A DNA stretch of 64,000 nucleotides from NCBI GenBank assembly GCA_037481815.1, contig JBBFKX010000003.1, forward strand, positions 128,001-192,000, in the 5' to 3' direction. Below, one piece after another: positions 24,001 through 30,000 of this stretch. The position numbers are program-made. The DNA is from a candidate division WOR-3 bacterium (GTDB lineage: Bacteria; Hydrothermota; 32-111). The first letter of the stretch is position 1, and each line of letters opens with the position of its first letter.

Positions 24001-27000
24001 GTTCAGATGCAAACATTTTTAACGAACATGGTATAAAAACGATTATCTTGGGTACTGGAATGAAAAATGTTCATACTGTCGATGAGTATATTTTTGAAAA
24101 CGATCTTATCATGTTAACCAGAATAATTTTGGGTTTGATGACTTACGATCAATAGTTTTGTCAGATTTTTATTGACATTTTGCTGTAAATCTTTATTATA
24201 TAAAATCTATTTTTTTATAAATTTAAAAGGAGGATATTTTGGCTGATATTAAAACAGGTGACATCAGAAACATAGCAATCGTTGGACACAACGGAGCAGG
24301 TAAAACAAGTTTTGGTGAAACTATACTTTTTAATACAGGTTTCACAACAAGATTGAACAAGGTCGATGAAAAAAATTCTATGCTTGACTATACCGATGAG
24401 GAAATGGCAAGGAGTATAACCATAGGTCTCAAACTTGCGACTGTAAAATGGCAGGATAAAACTATCAACTTCATCGATACACCAGGGTTCGTAGATTTCT
24501 TTGGGGAAGTCATATCGGCTTCAAAAGTTGTTGAATCTTTTATTTTCATCATCGACGGTTCAACCGGAGTCGATCTTGGAACTGAAAATGCATGGGAACT
24601 GAGAAAGAAAGAAAAACTTGCAGGACTTTTCGTTATCAACAAGATGAAAAGAGAAAATGTTGATTATGAAAAAGTTTTTCAGGAAATAAAAAATTCACTT
24701 TCAGAAAGCGCAACTCTGATCCAACTTCCAATAGGAAGTGGACCAAACTTTAAAGGAGTGGTTGATCTTATAACCGGAAAAGCGTATGTTTACGAGAATG
24801 GTAAAAAAAGTGAAACTCAGGTTCCCGGTGATATAAAAGATTCTGTTGAAAAGATGAAAAAAGAATTACTTGAGCAGATTGCATCATCCGATGAAACTTT
24901 GATGGAAAAGTTTTTTGCTGATAGTTTATCCCAGGAAGATATTAATACTGGATTTTTAAATGCAATCAAAAATGGAACACTCTATCCTGTATGTTTTACA
25001 GATTCTGTTGAAAATATAGGTGCTGATCTTGTGCTTGATTACATTATAAAATATCTTCCTTCACCAGCAGATCTCAACATCAGAAGACCTATTGAATCGG
25101 AAACTTATCCAGAAAAACCAGATCAGAACTCTCCTTTCGCAGGTTTTGTTTTTAAAACAAATGTCGAAAAACATTTAGGTGATATAAACTTCGTCAGAGT
25201 ATTCTCCGGGGTTTTGAAATCTGGAAGTGAAATCTACAACAGTTCAAAAAATGTTACGGAAAAAGTCAACCAGATGTATATCAATATTGGAAAAGAGAGA
25301 AAAGAGATAGATGAACTAACAACAGGAATGATAGGTGTTCTGGTAAAATTAAAATCAACAAAAACTTCAGATACGATATGTGATAAATCGATAAACATTA
25401 AATTCCCGCCCATAGAATTCCCTCATGCAAATGTTTCAATGGCAATAATTCCTCTTGCAAAAGGTGATGAGGAAAAAATTTCAAATGGATTATCAAAACT
25501 CCATGAAGAGGATCCATCATTCTATTTCAAATTTGATCCCGAAATCAAACAGACACTCATACATGGACTTGGAACTATACATCTTGAAGTGATAATAAAC
25601 AAATTGAAAGAAAAATTTGGAGTGAATGTCAACCTTGAAAAACCGAGGATCAAATACAGAGAAACGATTAAAAAGACAGCATCAGCAGAAGGAAAGCATA
25701 AAAAACAATCTGGTGGAAGAGGACAGTTCGGTGTGTGTAATGTTAAATTTGAACCACTTCCAAGGGGAACTGGATTCCAGTTCGTGGACGAGATTTTCGG
25801 TGGTGCAATTCCTGCAAAATTTGTCCCATCAGTTGAAAAAGGTATAAAAGATGCACTTGAAAAAGGAGTTGTTGCGGGTTATCCGATAGTTGATGTAAAG
25901 GCGATCCTTTTCGACGGAAAATATCATGATGTTGATTCATCCGATATAGCGTTTCAGATAGCCGGATCACTTGCAGTAAAAGGTGCGATACCACAAGCAG
26001 ATCCTGTAATCCTTGAACCTATAATGAATGTTGAGGTAACTGTCCCCGAAGAGTATATGGGTGATATAATGGGAGATATAAACGCAAGAAGAGGAAAAAT
26101 CCTTGGAACAGAACATGCTGGAAGATATCAAAAGATAAAAGCGTTGATTCCTGAAGCAGAAATGTATCAGTACTCATCTCAACTCAGATCGATGACACAG
26201 GGTAGAGGAACATTTAAAATGGAATTTGAGACATACGAAGAGGTTCCAAGAGAAAAGGTTGCAAAGATTATAGAGGAAGCGAAAAGATTTCAAGAGGAAC
26301 AACAGGAGAAATGATCATTTTAGATCATATCTTTGTTCAATATACTGTTTAAAATCCTTTAATCCTTCAGAAAATTTGATGAAGAGAGCATCAAGAGTGC
26401 TCTCTTCATCCTGTAATATCTTATTTTTTCCAAAAATTTCAATCTTTTTGGCAAGTTCCATAAGATAGAAAAGATTAAAGTTCCCAACAACACTTTTAAA
26501 CGCATGTGACTGTTTTGCAATCTGTTCAAAATCTCTTTCCTTTATCGCTTTTTCAAGCAAAGGATATCTCTGGTTGTAATCGTATATAAACGATTTCAAT
26601 ATATCCTTAAAATCATCGGAGTCCTTTCCAAAAAGTTCTTCAAGCGATGAAAGATCGTAATCCATAAAGTTATGGTTTAAACCTGTAAGGTATAGTTGTC
26701 TTCATTTCTGCTGGAACCCCATCGATCGTTCCAGGATTGAATACCGCTTTGTACGCTGCTTCAACTGCTGCGTTATCACAAGCAGGGTTCAAGGATTTTA
26801 TAACCTTTGCTGAAACAACTTTTCCATCCTTTCCGACAACAACCTCAACAAAAACTGTACCTTCAGCACCTATCTTCCTGGCAGCTTCAGGATATGCTGG
26901 TTGAATTATCTGTTTTGGGGTTGGTTGTATCACAACTGAAGGTTTCTTTTCCTCCTCTTTTTTCACGGTATCAACTGGTTGCTGTTGTTGCTGTTGAACC

Positions 27001-30000
27001 TGCTGGGAAAGCAACTGTGACGCTGTTGGAGTTTTTACCTGTGTCTCCTCTTTTGGTTTTGTTTCCTCTTTCACCTCTTTTTTAACATTCTTGTTGGTTT
27101 CAACAGTTTTTGTTTCCGTTTTTTGAACAGTTTCTTCAACTTTTGGTGCTGGGAAAAGCAAAGCAAAATCGATTTTCTTCTGGTTCGGTTTTTCTACATA
27201 GAATATATCAAGGTTTGAAATCGGTTCAATGTTTGAGGCATAAACGTTATCGAAAGATTTTAAAATATTGTTCGCTACTATAACCCTGTTTGGAACAAAA
27301 AGGAAAGCGTAAGGCTGATCATCAACGATTATCTGCTGGAACTCTTTCCAGTAACCTCTTGCTTCTTCTTTGTCCATAGTTGTCATCGCAAGGTTAACGA
27401 TAGAATCGACTTTTGGATTTCTGTAATCAACAAAGTTGAATCTTCCAGTTTCTTTTACTGAGGACCAGAAAGGTAGTGGATTGAAATCTTCGTTCACCTG
27501 CCATGAGAGTATGTAAATATCATAATCTTTCGAAAAGAGTTTCAAAATCAAAGAATCTGAAGGTAACTCTTTTAAGTTAACATTTAAACCAGCATTTTTC
27601 AACTGGTTTGTAACCTCTCTTGCAACTTTTACGAGCATCGCATCATTTCTATCTGTTATGAGATTCAAAACAAACGGTTTGTTGTTGTACATGTATCCTT
27701 TTACAGGATCCTTTTTTAAAATATTTTCGACAAGTTTTATTCCATCTTTATTGTATGAAACAGGTTTAATCTCTTCAGAATAAGCCCAGAATGATGGTGT
27801 TATCGGACCATTAGCAGGAATACCATTTTTTATCGTATTTTTTATCAGAAGATCTCTGTTTATCAATTGTGAAACACCTATTCTGAAATCTTTTGAGTCA
27901 AACGGTTTTCTTGAAAGGTTGAATCCAATATATGTATAGATGTTCCCTTTTTTCTGAATTCCCGTCACATTTTTTATCTTCGCTATCTCCTCTATGTTAT
28001 CTGGTGTTATATCGTAAACAAGATCAAGTTTTCCTTCTTTGAGATCACTGATTATAGATTGCTGATCGGTGTATATTCTGTAAACTATTTTATCTATGAA
28101 AGGTTTATCTTCCAGAGAATAGTTTTCATTTTTGACGAGTGATACATATTTACCACTTTCCCATTTTTCGAGTTTGTATGGTCCATTTCCAACAGGTCTT
28201 GTGTTAAAATCTGAATACTGTATCTGATTTTTTTCTTTTTCAAGCAAATGTTTTGGAAGTGGTTTTATGTTTGAATCAAAAAGTGCCATGGGATAAACCT
28301 TGTTGCAATAGAAAACGATTTTATCATCAGATAATACCTTAACCGAATCTATATTCTGTAATTTTGAAAATAACGGAGAATTGTTCTTTGGATCCTTGAT
28401 CAGGTTGAAAGTGAATTCAACATCATACGCCGTAACCGGCTGTCCATCCTGCCAGACAATATCTTTTCTTAGATAATAAGTTATCTTTTTTAGATCCTCT
28501 GAATATTCCCATGAGTTTGCAAGCATGGGAACTATGTTTCCGTTGATATCAGTTTTATGGAGTGGAAGAAAGATCATATCCACTATCTCGTTATGTGCTA
28601 TGAATGATGGATAAATAGGTGAAAGGTTCTCTGGTTCTCCAACTATTCCTACAACAATTTCTCCACCTGATTCTCCAACCTGTGGTGCTCTGGATATCTT
28701 TTTTTCACATGAGATAACAAGAATTATCGCCAATATGATAAGAACTATTTTAGAAATTTTAGAAAATTGCCTCATCAATCCTCCTTTTATTTATTTAAAG
28801 ATTATTATTTAAAATTTTGAATTTGTCAACCTATTTGATTCTCTTCAGAAAGAGTTTGATCTATTATCATTTCAAGTTTATCTCCCAAACTCTGTTCAGA
28901 ATAAAATTTTAAAATGTAATCTTTTCCCCTCTTCCCCATCTCCTCCCTTTCTGATTCAGACATATTGTACACTTTCATAATTATTGAAACGATTTCATCA
29001 AGATTTTCAGGATCAGCATAGAATCCACAACCCGAGTCCTTAACGAACTCTGAATATTCTGGTTTTGCTGTGATAAGTATCGGTTTCCCTGCAAGCATAT
29101 AATCAAAAAGTTTGTTTGGACTTAAACCGTATTTGTAAAGTTCAGTCTTGTTAACCGTGATCAAACATAGATCAACATTAGCAAGAAAATTCAAAATATT
29201 TCTTTTCGGTATCGTCTTATAGATTCTAACATTTTTTATATTTTCATCCTTAATTCTTTTTTCGATATCTTCCCTCAAAGGGCCTTCTCCGAGTATTAAA
29301 AAATCGATAGGTTTATCTTCAAGTTTTTTTGCAATATCAAGAATAAGGTAAGGGTTGTTTGCAACACCTATCGCACCAGTATAAGCAATAGTAAACTTAT
29401 CTATTTTATATTTTTCTTTGTAATACTCTTTGGGTTTATCGGGTGTAAAATGGTTTGGATATGTGCAGTTCGATATGAAATGTATTTTCTTTTCTTCTAT
29501 ACCTTTTGAAACTATATGATTTTTAAACTTTTCAACACAGACGATTATACTTTTGCTTTTCTGATAGATTATTTTTTCGAGAAGATATAAAAACCATGTG
29601 TAGGGATTTTTTTTCATCTCAGGTTTGAGTTGTATCAGTGACTCAGGCCAGAGGTCAAGAATATCTGATATGAATGGTTTTTTCAATTTTATCGATAGAA
29701 AAAGTGCGGAGAGTGCAGTGATCAACTGTGGTGAAACTCCTATAATTATATCTGGTTTTTCGAGTATCCTTCCAACTCTGTACATCTCAACAGAAAAAAT
29801 TATCTGGTTCAACAATCTCTGAAAATCATTTTTTTTGTAAGTAAAAGTTTTAACCCAGACAAAATTTACTCCGTTAACATTTTCGATTTTATAATATTCA
29901 TCTTTTGCAAGTTTCATATGCTGGAGTTTGTGAACATTGAAATCAGAAGAAATTATATATACTTTATAACCTCTTTTCACAAGTTCGATTCCAAAATCAA

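Follow-up and report, generated by a model that had tools for sequence, protein, structure and literature searches.

What might a single lipoprotein do that carries an oligopeptide-type binding domain and ends in a TonB C-terminal domain? The question is raised by a gene of a candidate division WOR-3 bacterium, located in a 64,000-nt stretch of contig JBBFKX010000003.1 that was analysed as a whole and is referred to here as the window. The features are listed in Table 1. The initial annotation described a four-part protein composed of a lipoprotein signal, a family-5 binding domain, a linker and TonB_C. We found this anatomy and its conservation to be correct. The minus-strand frame and its length from the TTG were present, the "...LVISC" and YP motifs were both read in the sequence, and the Pfam matches (SBP_bac_5 at residues 81-440, E 7.6e-78; TonB_C at residues 626-701, E 8.4e-19) were reproduced to the exact figures. 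The SBP_bac_5-TonB_C architecture is already catalogued in databases, and no discussion of it was found in the papers searched, the same outcome as reported before.

Table 1. Features of the fusion gene and its surroundings (positions in the window)
Feature	Position	Strand	Basis
Whole gene: lipoprotein SBP_bac_5-linker-TonB_C fusion	26670..28778	minus	702 aa from TTG 28778
Predicted signal peptide and lipobox, residues 1-24 (...ILVIS-C24)	28707..28778	minus	sequence reading
Family-5 (cluster C, oligopeptide/nickel type) solute-binding domain, residues ~35-535	27174..28676	minus	Pfam SBP_bac_5 7.6e-78
Linker, residues ~536-619, rich in K, Q, E, V, T, P	26922..27173	minus	predicted disordered save one helix
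Conserved linker helix motif, residues 586-599, consensus PE-x-LLEAAAK	26982..27023	minus	AF2 and alignment
TonB C-terminal domain, residues 620-702, Y629, P630, Cys667	26673..26921	minus	Pfam TonB_C 8.4e-19
Hpt-domain gene, 116 aa, downstream of fusion	26315..26665	minus	Pfam Hpt 6.3e-6
Two permease genes, g1303 and g1304, CUT1 (UgpA/UgpE-like)	21137..22988	minus	NCBIfam
TonB-dependent receptor, 655 aa, candidate docking partner (1 of 4)	56679..58646	minus	Plug 1.6e-18

An AAGGAGG Shine-Dalgarno sequence at 28786-28780 lies merely 1 nt ahead of the TTG, and homologues begin with MR or MK; the true start is likely the ATG at 28775, which would give a protein of 701 aa. All 62 fusion homologues have the lipobox cysteine (Cys24), and in 49 of them the residue before it (-1) is S, A or G. 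The protein is predicted from its sequence to be lipidated, and any assignment of the anchor to one of the two membranes would have the same basis.

The binding domain was also recognized by NCBIfam (Opp4A-like, residues 33-511, 1.2e-48), and a PDB profile search returned AppA (1xoc, 5e-104) and NikZ (4oet, 6e-85). Its AF2 model had block-mean pLDDT values of mostly 83-97 throughout, and Foldseek matched it to 1xoc (TMt 0.85) and to CcNikZ-II (8efz, TMt 0.88). The domain is nearest to peptide binders, namely to AppA, whose structure holds a nonapeptide. The ligand is most likely oligopeptides. This assignment is tentative, as nickel binders of the NikZ type match almost as well as AppA does; a metal-amino-acid chelate is the second possibility.

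The linker measured ~96 aa, not the ~85 aa initially given, compared with ~85-90 aa in the TonB of the same genome (hydrophobic segment to residue 124). In the family, it ranged from 80 to 118 aa with a median of 94, and its composition was dominated by E (15.6%), K (12.6%), P (12.5%) and T (11.3%). AF2 gave pLDDT values below 50 at residues 547-581 and 601-613 and a helix between them, over which the mean pLDDT was 67-70 in 10-residue blocks; the motif in this helix was free of gaps in all 62 fusions. The TonB_C domain was matched by NCBIfam tonB_Cterm (TIGR01352, residues 627-702, 2e-15) and by PDB chains of TonB (9ddz, 4.5e-5; 2k9k, 6.8e-5), and was 47% identical over 79 aa to the C-terminal domain of the genome's own TonB. 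Its block-mean pLDDT was 87-96, falling to 81 at the final residues, and Y629 and P630 of the YP motif were invariant among the 62 homologues. The mean frequency of the top residue was 0.65 in TonB_C, the highest in the protein, 0.57 in the binding domain and 0.35 in the linker. The TonB_C domain looks functional.

The fusion was present in 55 of the 121 sampled genomes of the phylum. The family is single-copy and vertically inherited, and the gene is core across whole families. Except for G000, the genomes are metagenome bins for which no completeness is stated. A repeat search found both domains in 61 of the 120 homologue clusters listed, fewer than the 75 claimed initially. The earlier genome totals held: two SBP_bac_5 and two TonB_C matches, the second TonB_C lying in a 208-aa frame at C2:142830-143057. 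Plug-domain TonB-dependent receptors were detected in 31 of 31 fusion-bearing genomes tested, each of which had at least one ordinary TonB, seen as a TonB_C frame of 170-355 aa, and exactly one frame of 679-731 aa. The window's own genome contains four Plug matches and an exbB-exbD-exbD-tonB cluster that lies elsewhere, not beside the fusion. In four genomes a receptor gene divergently adjoins the fusion, as recognized by Pfam in L024 and L037 and from coordinates in G006 and G007, and among the 18 foreign loci and the window scanned this arrangement is confined to one lineage.

The initial annotation proposed that the fusion is tethered to such receptors and hands peptides to an Opp-type ABC importer. 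This proposal is supported in part: the tie to TonB-dependent receptors is plausible, and the hand-off fails. The genome, which is 95% complete, had 0 matches to oligo_HPY, the Opp ATPase signature, and none to BPD_transp_1_N. Among fusion-bearing relatives, oligo_HPY was absent from 29 of 30, and BPD_transp_1_N exceeded the cut-off in one of the 31 genomes. In a control set of 14 genomes, SBP_bac_5, oligo_HPY and BPD_transp_1_N were positive in the identical 11. Across an even sample of the phylum, 42 of the 55 fusion-bearing genomes lacked oligo_HPY, and the 13 that had it were 12 members of family f11 and G137; it was absent in every sampled member of f1, f2, f4, f6, f14, f20, f21 and f24. 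The permease genes g1303 and g1304 do exist with no ATPase gene adjacent, as stated earlier; their assignment to the Opp type was wrong. Their best NCBIfam models were UgpA (1e-32) and UgpE (2.8e-35), with GlcT/GlcU and MalF/MalG also matching, and there was no Dpp/Opp permease model among their NCBIfam matches. The only other permease pair of the genome is pstCA. No OPT or PTR2 transporter was found in the genome, and CstA was found as a fragment only, on a 732-bp contig. Since no Opp-type importer is encoded, the fusion would not feed one in this organism.

Both domains of the fusion are strongly conserved, and in each of the 31 genomes tested it is accompanied by receptors and an ordinary TonB. 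We tentatively favor, as an explanation with somewhat less than an even chance of being right, an un-energised TonB-like adaptor that would tie a peptide-binding domain in the periplasm to TonB-dependent receptors, with no need of an ABC importer. The fusion would then resemble a TonB whose membrane helix is swapped for a lipid anchor and a complete oligopeptide-type binding domain. A flexible arm of TonB length would allow TonB_C to reach the periplasmic face of outer-membrane receptors, where it would pair with the TonB-box strand as TonB does, and the binding domain would thereby be kept on or under the receptor and catch ligand that the receptor admits. The fusion would not be energisable by ExbB/ExbD. 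With neither this energy nor an Opp importer, it would be a receptor-tethered periplasmic trap or adaptor, from which bound peptides might pass to periplasmic peptidases or secondary transporters. Most carriers have no Opp pump, suggesting that the fusion probably acts at outer-membrane receptors in an undescribed mode. Docking to TonB boxes and a positive role in uptake are what we infer from these sequences.

Some neighbouring genes hint at a part in acquiring peptides: besides the divergent receptor genes, a C25 protease gene whose product has a type IX secretion tail adjoins the fusion in L017 and L029, and upstream of it in L046 are genes for two M42 peptidases and one M23 peptidase. Other points weigh on the other side. 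The neighbourhoods differ between lineages. With no downstream acceptor, the pay-off of a trap is not obvious. The binding domain sits by the lipid anchor, at the other end of the protein from TonB_C, and an inner-membrane anchor would place it far from the receptor exit.

In E. coli, an un-energised or overexpressed periplasmic TonB domain inhibits receptor-mediated uptake (Howard 2001, cited in PMC9841981), and plain docking at TonB boxes might therefore brake uptake, not aid it. The fusion could thus be a ligand-gated decoy, in which TonB_C would hold the TonB boxes in competition with real TonB and the occupancy of the binding domain would set the strength of the brake. Occupancy would perhaps be relayed through the conserved linker helix, so that high periplasmic peptide would throttle import. 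A decoy is in keeping with the blocked transport in E. coli, with a fusion that has no TonB-type membrane helix, no exbBD next to it and an ordinary TonB always alongside, with its retention where no ABC importer exists, and with the conserved helix motif; the literature searches made turned up no earlier example of such a valve, and we consider it unlikely.

The family-5 domain normally serves Opp/Dpp/Nik importers, and the fusion might be the substrate-binding component of an Opp-type importer, tethered to receptors for direct receptor-to-pump transfer. Hand-off is possible in some genomes, because 13 of the 55 carriers have OppD/F-type ATPases. Binding proteins encoded off-operon can share a translocator, as described for MppA, which shares the Opp translocator though encoded away from the operon (PMC3173086), and the non-covalent TonB-FhuD and TonB-BtuF contacts that have been reported (Carter 2006 and James 2009, cited in PMC3813593) offer a precedent here as well as for the adaptor favored above. 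However, the ATPase signature is missing from the other 42 carriers, neither the window nor any of the 18 foreign loci has an Opp gene beside the fusion, and in genomes having an Opp system, three of three opp operons examined had their own binding-protein genes without TonB_C. In the window's own genome, where the permease pairs are pstCA and the UgpAE-like pair only, this model is already contradicted unless the translocator lies in the ~5% unassembled, and we regard it as improbable overall.

A role in the cell envelope is about equally improbable. The fusion would bind stem peptides of peptidoglycan or unfolded envelope proteins while TonB_C holds on to the wall or to a protein of the outer membrane, and would serve as a tether across the envelope, a recycler of wall peptides or a chaperone, not as a nutrient device. 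Genes for UDP-glucose dehydrogenase, epimerase and MscS lie near the fusion in L026, L034, L042 and L047, YfhO and DUF4837 in L054 and L039, the M23 peptidase in L046 and a glycosyltransferase in the window; the core, single-copy status of the gene in whole families also fits, and a preprint links orphan SBP-like lipoproteins to mycobacterial envelope biogenesis. These neighbourhoods are inconsistent between lineages, however. The match to MppA, a murein-peptide binder, was far weaker (1e-39) than that to AppA in the same PDB profile search, and each of the 31 genomes already owns two to nine OmpA_C-type wall-binding proteins.

The Hpt gene begins 4 nt past the fusion stop codon with no terminator-like site between the two, and is probably co-transcribed with the fusion; the same layout occurs in L017 and L029. 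The second of the genome's two SBP_bac_5 domains forms the sensor end of a chemoreceptor-like protein that is encoded in a che cluster, and histidine kinase, response regulator and GGDEF genes are convergent with the fusion in L026 and L047. These genes would suit a sensor whose loaded binding domain signals to a chemoreceptor or kinase, TonB_C only positioning the protein. Yet Hpt is cytoplasmic, its Pfam match in the window is weak and the arrangement is limited to close relatives; no receptor that could be its partner is consistently found beside the fusion, whose neighbourhoods vary among lineages in the 18 foreign loci and the window, and the strong conservation of TonB_C would go unexplained, making a sensor very unlikely. 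Service to the CUT1 permeases, which lie ~3.7 kb from the fusion with no binding protein or ATPase adjoining, is scarcely credible, given the family mismatch: such permeases would not be expected to partner a family-5 protein, a class known only with Opp-type translocators, a class-matching SBP_bac_1/8 protein is encoded at C2:97916-98851, and five of the 31 carriers, all five of unknown completeness, have two or fewer BPD_transp_1 matches, with none in G009.

Compared with known systems, the fusion is closest over its binding domain to AppA of Bacillus subtilis (PDB 1xoc), OppA, DppA and NikZ, which are homologous throughout and share the fold, and a lipid anchor like that of AppA is expected; unlike them, it adds the linker and the C-terminal TonB_C and has neither OppBCDF nor an adjoining transporter gene. 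With TonB of the ExbB-ExbD-TonB system it shares an E/K/P-rich linker of like length, the YP motif and the closely related C-terminal domain. It differs in having a cleavable lipoprotein signal instead of the ExbB/ExbD-coupling helix and an inserted 500-aa binding domain; with this N terminus, and with exbBD not adjacent, the fusion cannot transduce energy by the known route. SusD/RagB lipoproteins, whose genes lie beside those of the receptors, bind ligands for the TonB-dependent receptors SusC/RagA on the outer face and have a helical fold, and RagAB imports peptides. The fusion would resemble them as a ligand-binding lipoprotein tied to a TonB-dependent receptor, but its fold is unrelated and it would act from the periplasmic side through its TonB domain. 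The un-coupled TonB C-terminal domain recalls the periplasmic TonB fragments of E. coli (Howard 2001, cited in PMC9841981), which are artificial constructs, whereas the fusion occurs naturally, is conserved and has a ligand-binding domain attached. The E. coli TonB-FhuD and TonB-BtuF contacts, as cited in PMC3813593, embody the same idea of a TonB element that places a binding protein at the receptor; in the fusion, both would be joined in one polypeptide with a family-5 domain, not one of the FhuD/BtuF class, in carriers that mostly have no matching ABC importer.

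The frame of the fusion protein, which joins a lipoprotein signal, an SBP_bac_5 domain, a linker and a TonB_C domain, was borne out as 702 amino acids with a translation free of stops, and its Pfam matches were reproduced (SBP_bac_5 at residues 81-440, E = 7.6e-78; TonB_C at residues 626-701, E = 8.4e-19). Translation probably starts at the ATG rather than at the TTG, since an AAGGAGG ends one base before the TTG and the homologues start with MR or MK. Upstream of the gene lies a sigma-70-like site (TTGACA, 17 nt, AATAAT), a kind of site that is not enriched in the region (21 vs. 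16.4 ± 4.2 in shuffles), and an Hpt-domain gene begins 4 nt past the stop codon.

Coordinates of the features discussed, within the window unless a contig of the same genome (C2 or C9) is named
Feature	Position	Strand	Remark
Fusion gene	26670-28778	-	
Probable start codon (ATG)	28775		
AAGGAGG	28786-28780		
Sigma-70-like site	28829-28801		
Linker helix motif	26982-27023	-	residues 586-599
Cys667 codon	26778-26780	-	
UgpAE-like permease pair	21137-22988	-	
Phosphate uptake operon	9884-13835	-	PstS-like binding protein, two permeases, ATPase, PhoU
PorV/PorQ-family protein	30784-31737	+	
LVIVD-repeat protein	51948-54071	-	with Por_Secre_tail
Receptor, binding protein and chemotaxis genes	54149-58646	-	655, 290 and 477 aa
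Plug-domain receptor of the window	56679-58646		
Second SBP_bac_5 protein (locus L007)	C2:180706-184044	-	1112 aa
SBP_bac_1/8 protein	C2:97916-98851		
CstA remnant	C9:25-189		last 57 profile positions, 732-bp contig

In residues 1-24 an N-region with positive charge precedes a hydrophobic core that closes with ...VIS-C, and by eye the N-terminus (MRQFSKISKIVLIILAIILVIS-C) carries the export signal of family-5 solute-binding proteins. The lipobox-type cysteine is invariant in all 62 aligned fusions, 49 of which have S, A or G at position -1. The segment reads as a lipoprotein signal, which would make Cys24 the first residue of the mature protein. The SBP_bac_5 match scored 262.6 bits against a curated cut-off of 32.4. 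In the AF2 model (mean pLDDT 86.4, 71-row alignment), residues ~35-535 were predicted to form the complete bilobed family-5 fold of solved members, with the best Foldseek matches to B. subtilis AppA with a nonapeptide (1xoc, TMt 0.85), C. jejuni NikZ (0.85) and CcNikZ-II (8efz, 0.88). By sequence profile, the binding domain matched AppA (5e-104), NikZ (6e-85) and MppA (1e-39), and the NCBIfam matches at residues 33-511 (Opp4A-, NikA-, GsiB- and OppA-like) all fell far below the equivalog cut-offs.

Bounded by reference residues 529 and 627, the linker has 96 aa here and 80-118 aa (median 94) across the family. It is a Pro/Glu/Lys-rich spacer of the kind found in TonB energy transducers, both in this protein (K18, Q14, E12, V11, T11, P9) and in the family (E 15.6, K 12.6, P 12.5, T 11.3, V 10.6 and A 10.0%), and AF2 predicted disorder at residues 547-581 and 601-613. 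Within this otherwise variable linker a helix was predicted for a motif, consensus PE-x-LLEAAAK, that is ungapped in 62 of 62 fusions and was not found in the genome's own TonB. Residues 620-702 are confidently a TonB C-terminal domain: the TonB_C match scored 68.3 bits (cut-off 24.6), NCBIfam tonB_Cterm covered residues 627-702, Y629 and P630 of the YP motif are invariant, and the solved TonB domains 9ddz and 2k9k were matched by sequence at 4.5e-5 and 6.8e-5. The domain shares 47% identity over 79 aa with that of the genome's own TonB, and conservation is highest in it (0.65, vs. 0.57 in the binding domain and 0.35 in the linker). Cys667, in the motif NPAC[DE], is kept in 54 of the 62 fusions; the own TonB has Leu there, and no partner cysteine is evident.

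Among the best 120 homologue clusters from a large protein collection, 61 carry both Pfam domains, fewer than the 75 counted in the initial annotation. These 61 are 666-715 aa long and range from 89% down to 32% identity to the query, and a clean step in E-value, from 5e-93 to 1e-76, separates them from the first plain binding protein. The homologues bear database names such as 'TonB family protein', 'TonB C-terminal...' and 'peptide/nickel transport system substrate-binding protein'. Conservation of the architecture held up, with full-length copies in genomes titled TA06, WOR-3-like 'bacterium', Stahlbacteria and Cloacimonadota, and also Hydrothermus. An even sample of the phylum gave matches at E <= 1e-30 in 56 of 121 genomes; one match is a 487-aa plain binding protein (genome G050), which leaves 55 fusion carriers, 47 with alignments reaching query residue 700 or beyond and 8 with alignments that are shorter or cut by contig ends. 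Presence of the fusion follows families within this sample: it was found in all genomes of f1 (13), f4 (6), f6 (4), f20 (5) and f29 (2) and in 18 of 19 of f11, and was not found in f5 (0/11) or f16 (0/8). Each of 31 fusion-bearing genomes has exactly one TonB_C in a 679-731-aa frame and, in addition, one or more in frames of 170-355 aa, a length typical of ordinary TonBs.

The initial annotation proposed that the fusion hands peptides from TonB-dependent receptors to an Opp-type ABC importer. The two Opp-type permeases and two oligo_HPY ATPases of an Opp/Dpp importer were not found in the own genome (1.58 Mb, 20 contigs, 95.11% complete), which gave no match to oligo_HPY, the tail of OppD/F-type ATPases, or to BPD_transp_1_N, the N-domain of GsiC/OppB-type permeases. 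Its only four BPD_transp_1 genes are a pstCA pair, part of pstSCAB-phoU, and a UgpAE-like pair. The latter is the permease pair that had been noticed near the fusion; its existence stands but its Opp type does not, the best NCBIfam matches being UgpA (1e-32) and UgpE (2.8e-35), followed by GlcT/GlcU and MalF/MalG, with no Opp or Dpp permease model among the matches listed. Neither a binding protein nor an ATPase adjoins this pair, and the window also contains a complete phosphate uptake operon. As for other inner-membrane peptide routes, OPT and PTR2 were not found in the own genome. Of CstA (peptide/pyruvate transporter family) only a remnant was seen, on a very short contig, so at least one transporter gene is fragmented in the assembly.

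The same signatures were sought in other carriers. We detected oligo_HPY in 1 of 30 further fusion-bearing genomes and BPD_transp_1_N above cut-off in 1 of 31 with the own genome included; both occur in genome G030, on the same contig as a plain SBP_bac_5 domain in a 583-aa frame. The number of BPD_transp_1 genes varied from 0 to 8 across the 31 genomes, and in 14 control genomes SBP_bac_5, oligo_HPY and BPD_transp_1_N were all detected in the same 11. Since the 30 genomes were the best matches of the query, the oligo_HPY search was repeated on the even phylum sample, where 17 of 121 genomes had a match (16 above cut-off). Among the 55 carriers it was present in 13 (12 of f11, plus G137) and in none of the other 42, and families f1, f2, f4, f6, f14, f20, f21 and f24 gave zero matches in the sample. 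In all three opp operons fetched from f11, one or two SBP_bac_5 genes of the operon's own precede OppBCDF, encoding proteins of 642-661 aa without TonB_C. In these operons (L097 of G041, L098 of G097 and L099 of G136) the SBP_bac_5 domain starts only at residue 125-139, so the proteins have a long N-terminal extension. All genomes besides the own one are bins without a stated completeness, in which a single absence is weak evidence, and the argument is the pattern across families. Opp signatures were not found in the own genome and most carriers, and this contradicts an Opp hand-off in these genomes.

No BPD_transp_1 or oligo_HPY gene adjoins the fusion in the window or in 18 foreign loci (9, plus flanks for another 9). 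A conserved operon partner was ruled out by at least five differing, lineage-specific neighbourhoods without a transporter in these 18 loci and the window. Hpt and a convergent EF-G are present in the window, L017 and L029, the latter two with a C25 (gingipain-family) protease bearing a type IX secretion tail upstream of the fusion. EF-G without Hpt occurs in L020 and L021, in which ABC_tran genes near the fusion accompany FtsX/MacB and LolA-like genes; an ABC_tran gene in L048 is without oligo_HPY. A divergent TonB-dependent receptor was identified by Pfam in L024 and L037, with a tRNA ligase two genes downstream, and by coordinates adjoining the fusion in genomes G006 and G007; a receptor gene adjoins the fusion in only these 4 genomes, all of one lineage. 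UDP-glucose dehydrogenase and epimerase are found in L026 (with MscS between epimerase and fusion) and L034, epimerase and MscS upstream in L042 and L047 (flanks scanned), and L027, L030, L031 and L040 resemble the dehydrogenase/epimerase set in ORF sizes only. DUF4837 and YfhO occur in L054 and L039, and M42, M42 and M23 peptidases in L046, whose layout L076 equals in ORF sizes only. These neighbourhoods hint at peptide acquisition and envelope functions, with no fixed partner. Type IX secretion parts in the window itself include a PorV/PorQ-family protein and an LVIVD-repeat protein with a tail like that of the C25 proteases of L017 and L029.

On contig C2 of the own genome, one exbB, two exbD and the gene of the 205-aa TonB stand next to one another; this is its single exbB-exbD-exbD cluster, and no exbB or exbD was found near the fusion. 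Nor does the fusion appear to have the uncleaved N-terminal helix that couples a TonB to ExbB/ExbD, its hydrophobic segment ending in the invariant lipobox-type Cys. Four Plug-domain receptors are encoded in the genome, one of them in the window. A complex prediction, run without controls, of TonB_C (612-702) with the plug (22-175) of the window receptor scored 0.14 (mark 0.32) and was taken as evidence neither for nor against docking. The L024 receptor, searched against the own genome by tblastn, showed plug-level similarity only, to the window receptor (E = 4.6e-5), with 29-36% identity over the plug by BLASTP, and no dedicated receptor common to L024 and the own genome could be named by these searches. 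The initial proposal is in part supported: the link to TonB-dependent receptors is plausible, whereas onward delivery to an Opp importer is contradicted in the own genome and in most carriers. The window receptor stands in a row on one strand with an ABC_sub_bind-type protein and a methyl-accepting chemotaxis protein, another case of a binding protein beside a receptor and a sensor and not beside a transporter.

Besides the fusion, the genome has a single SBP_bac_5 protein, encoded at L007. It has two chemoreceptor-tip-like motifs, a binding domain at its C-terminus and no hydrophobic 19-residue segment, and looks like a soluble chemoreceptor with a peptide-type binding domain as sensor. Directly downstream on the same strand are a 132-aa ORF, a receiver-like ORF and an Hpt-like ORF, which by eye read as cheW, cheY and cheA. 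SBP_bac_5 frames of at least 1030 aa were found in 28 of the 31 fusion-bearing genomes.

TonB domains pair with the TonB boxes of receptors, and the most economical reading is that the TonB_C domain of the fusion would do the same. Such pairing would hold the binding domain at the receptor, where it would capture incoming ligand independently of a translocator. A translocator-independent use is required because most carriers, the own genome included, encode no Opp-type translocator; that this use is ligand capture at the receptor is quite possible, and we propose it tentatively. More doubtful is the wider proposal of a natural, un-energised 'second TonB' in the periplasm with a ligand-sensor head, an orphan binding domain that would read the peptide load, while the TonB domain would hold, hand over at, or shut TonB-dependent receptors without an ABC importer.

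Two observations speak against a simple helper role: the binding domain is placed at the anchor end, opposite the TonB_C end, and in E. coli uptake was inhibited by a TonB domain that was not energised, according to a passage of PMC9841981 citing Howard 2001. A ligand-gated TonB decoy is therefore retained as the main rival, though an unlikely one. Hand-off to an Opp importer could apply only to the Opp-bearing minority of carriers and is improbable overall, being contradicted in the own genome and the majority. An envelope role, at which some neighbourhoods hint, has an equally small chance; an outer-membrane-to-wall tether replacing missing OmpA-type proteins was ruled out as a motive by OmpA_C domains in 31 of 31 genomes. 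The chance of a sensor role appears slimmer still. Partnership with the CUT1 permease pair is very improbable: the genome's single SBP_bac_1/8 protein, of the class fitting UgpAE-like permeases, lies on a different contig from the pair, so parts of a CUT1-type importer are scattered.

The fusion is composed of known parts in a new variant, present in databases and not described in the papers searched. As noted before, no paper with both Pfam names was found in the open-access literature searched, nor one on a fusion between a solute-binding protein and a TonB domain. The nearest published idea, in an excerpt of PMC3813593, is that TonB reportedly contacts two binding proteins, FhuD and BtuF. 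If the 'second TonB' proposal is true, the fusion would represent a new coupling or regulation of outer-membrane active transport, and it would prove in covalent form the contact with binding proteins that has long been proposed for TonB. Receptor docking, if true, would reveal how the step that follows the outer membrane is arranged in poorly known, uncultured peptide-fermenting bacteria. It would also offer a ready way to test if binding proteins are positioned by TonB elements, and possibly a natural regulator for TonB-dependent receptors. Neither 'TonB family protein' nor 'peptide ABC transporter substrate-binding protein' is a safe annotation for such genes, and metabolic reconstructions should not deduce ABC import of peptides from their presence.

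In the current understanding of TonB-dependent uptake, a receptor works with an energised TonB, and an unattached binding protein and an ABC pump then take over; in the conserved fusion the binding protein has a TonB tail, and the gene is kept in genomes without the pump. On the opposite face of the receptor the SusD/RagB lipoproteins are functionally analogous, but the fusion has no SusD-family Pfam match and lacks their combination of helical fold and adjoining receptor gene. With TonB it shares the periplasmic side, where its spacer is alike in type and in length and its C-terminal domain is well conserved, whereas it has none of the membrane part of TonB, the helix being replaced by a lipid anchor together with a binding domain of peptide type.
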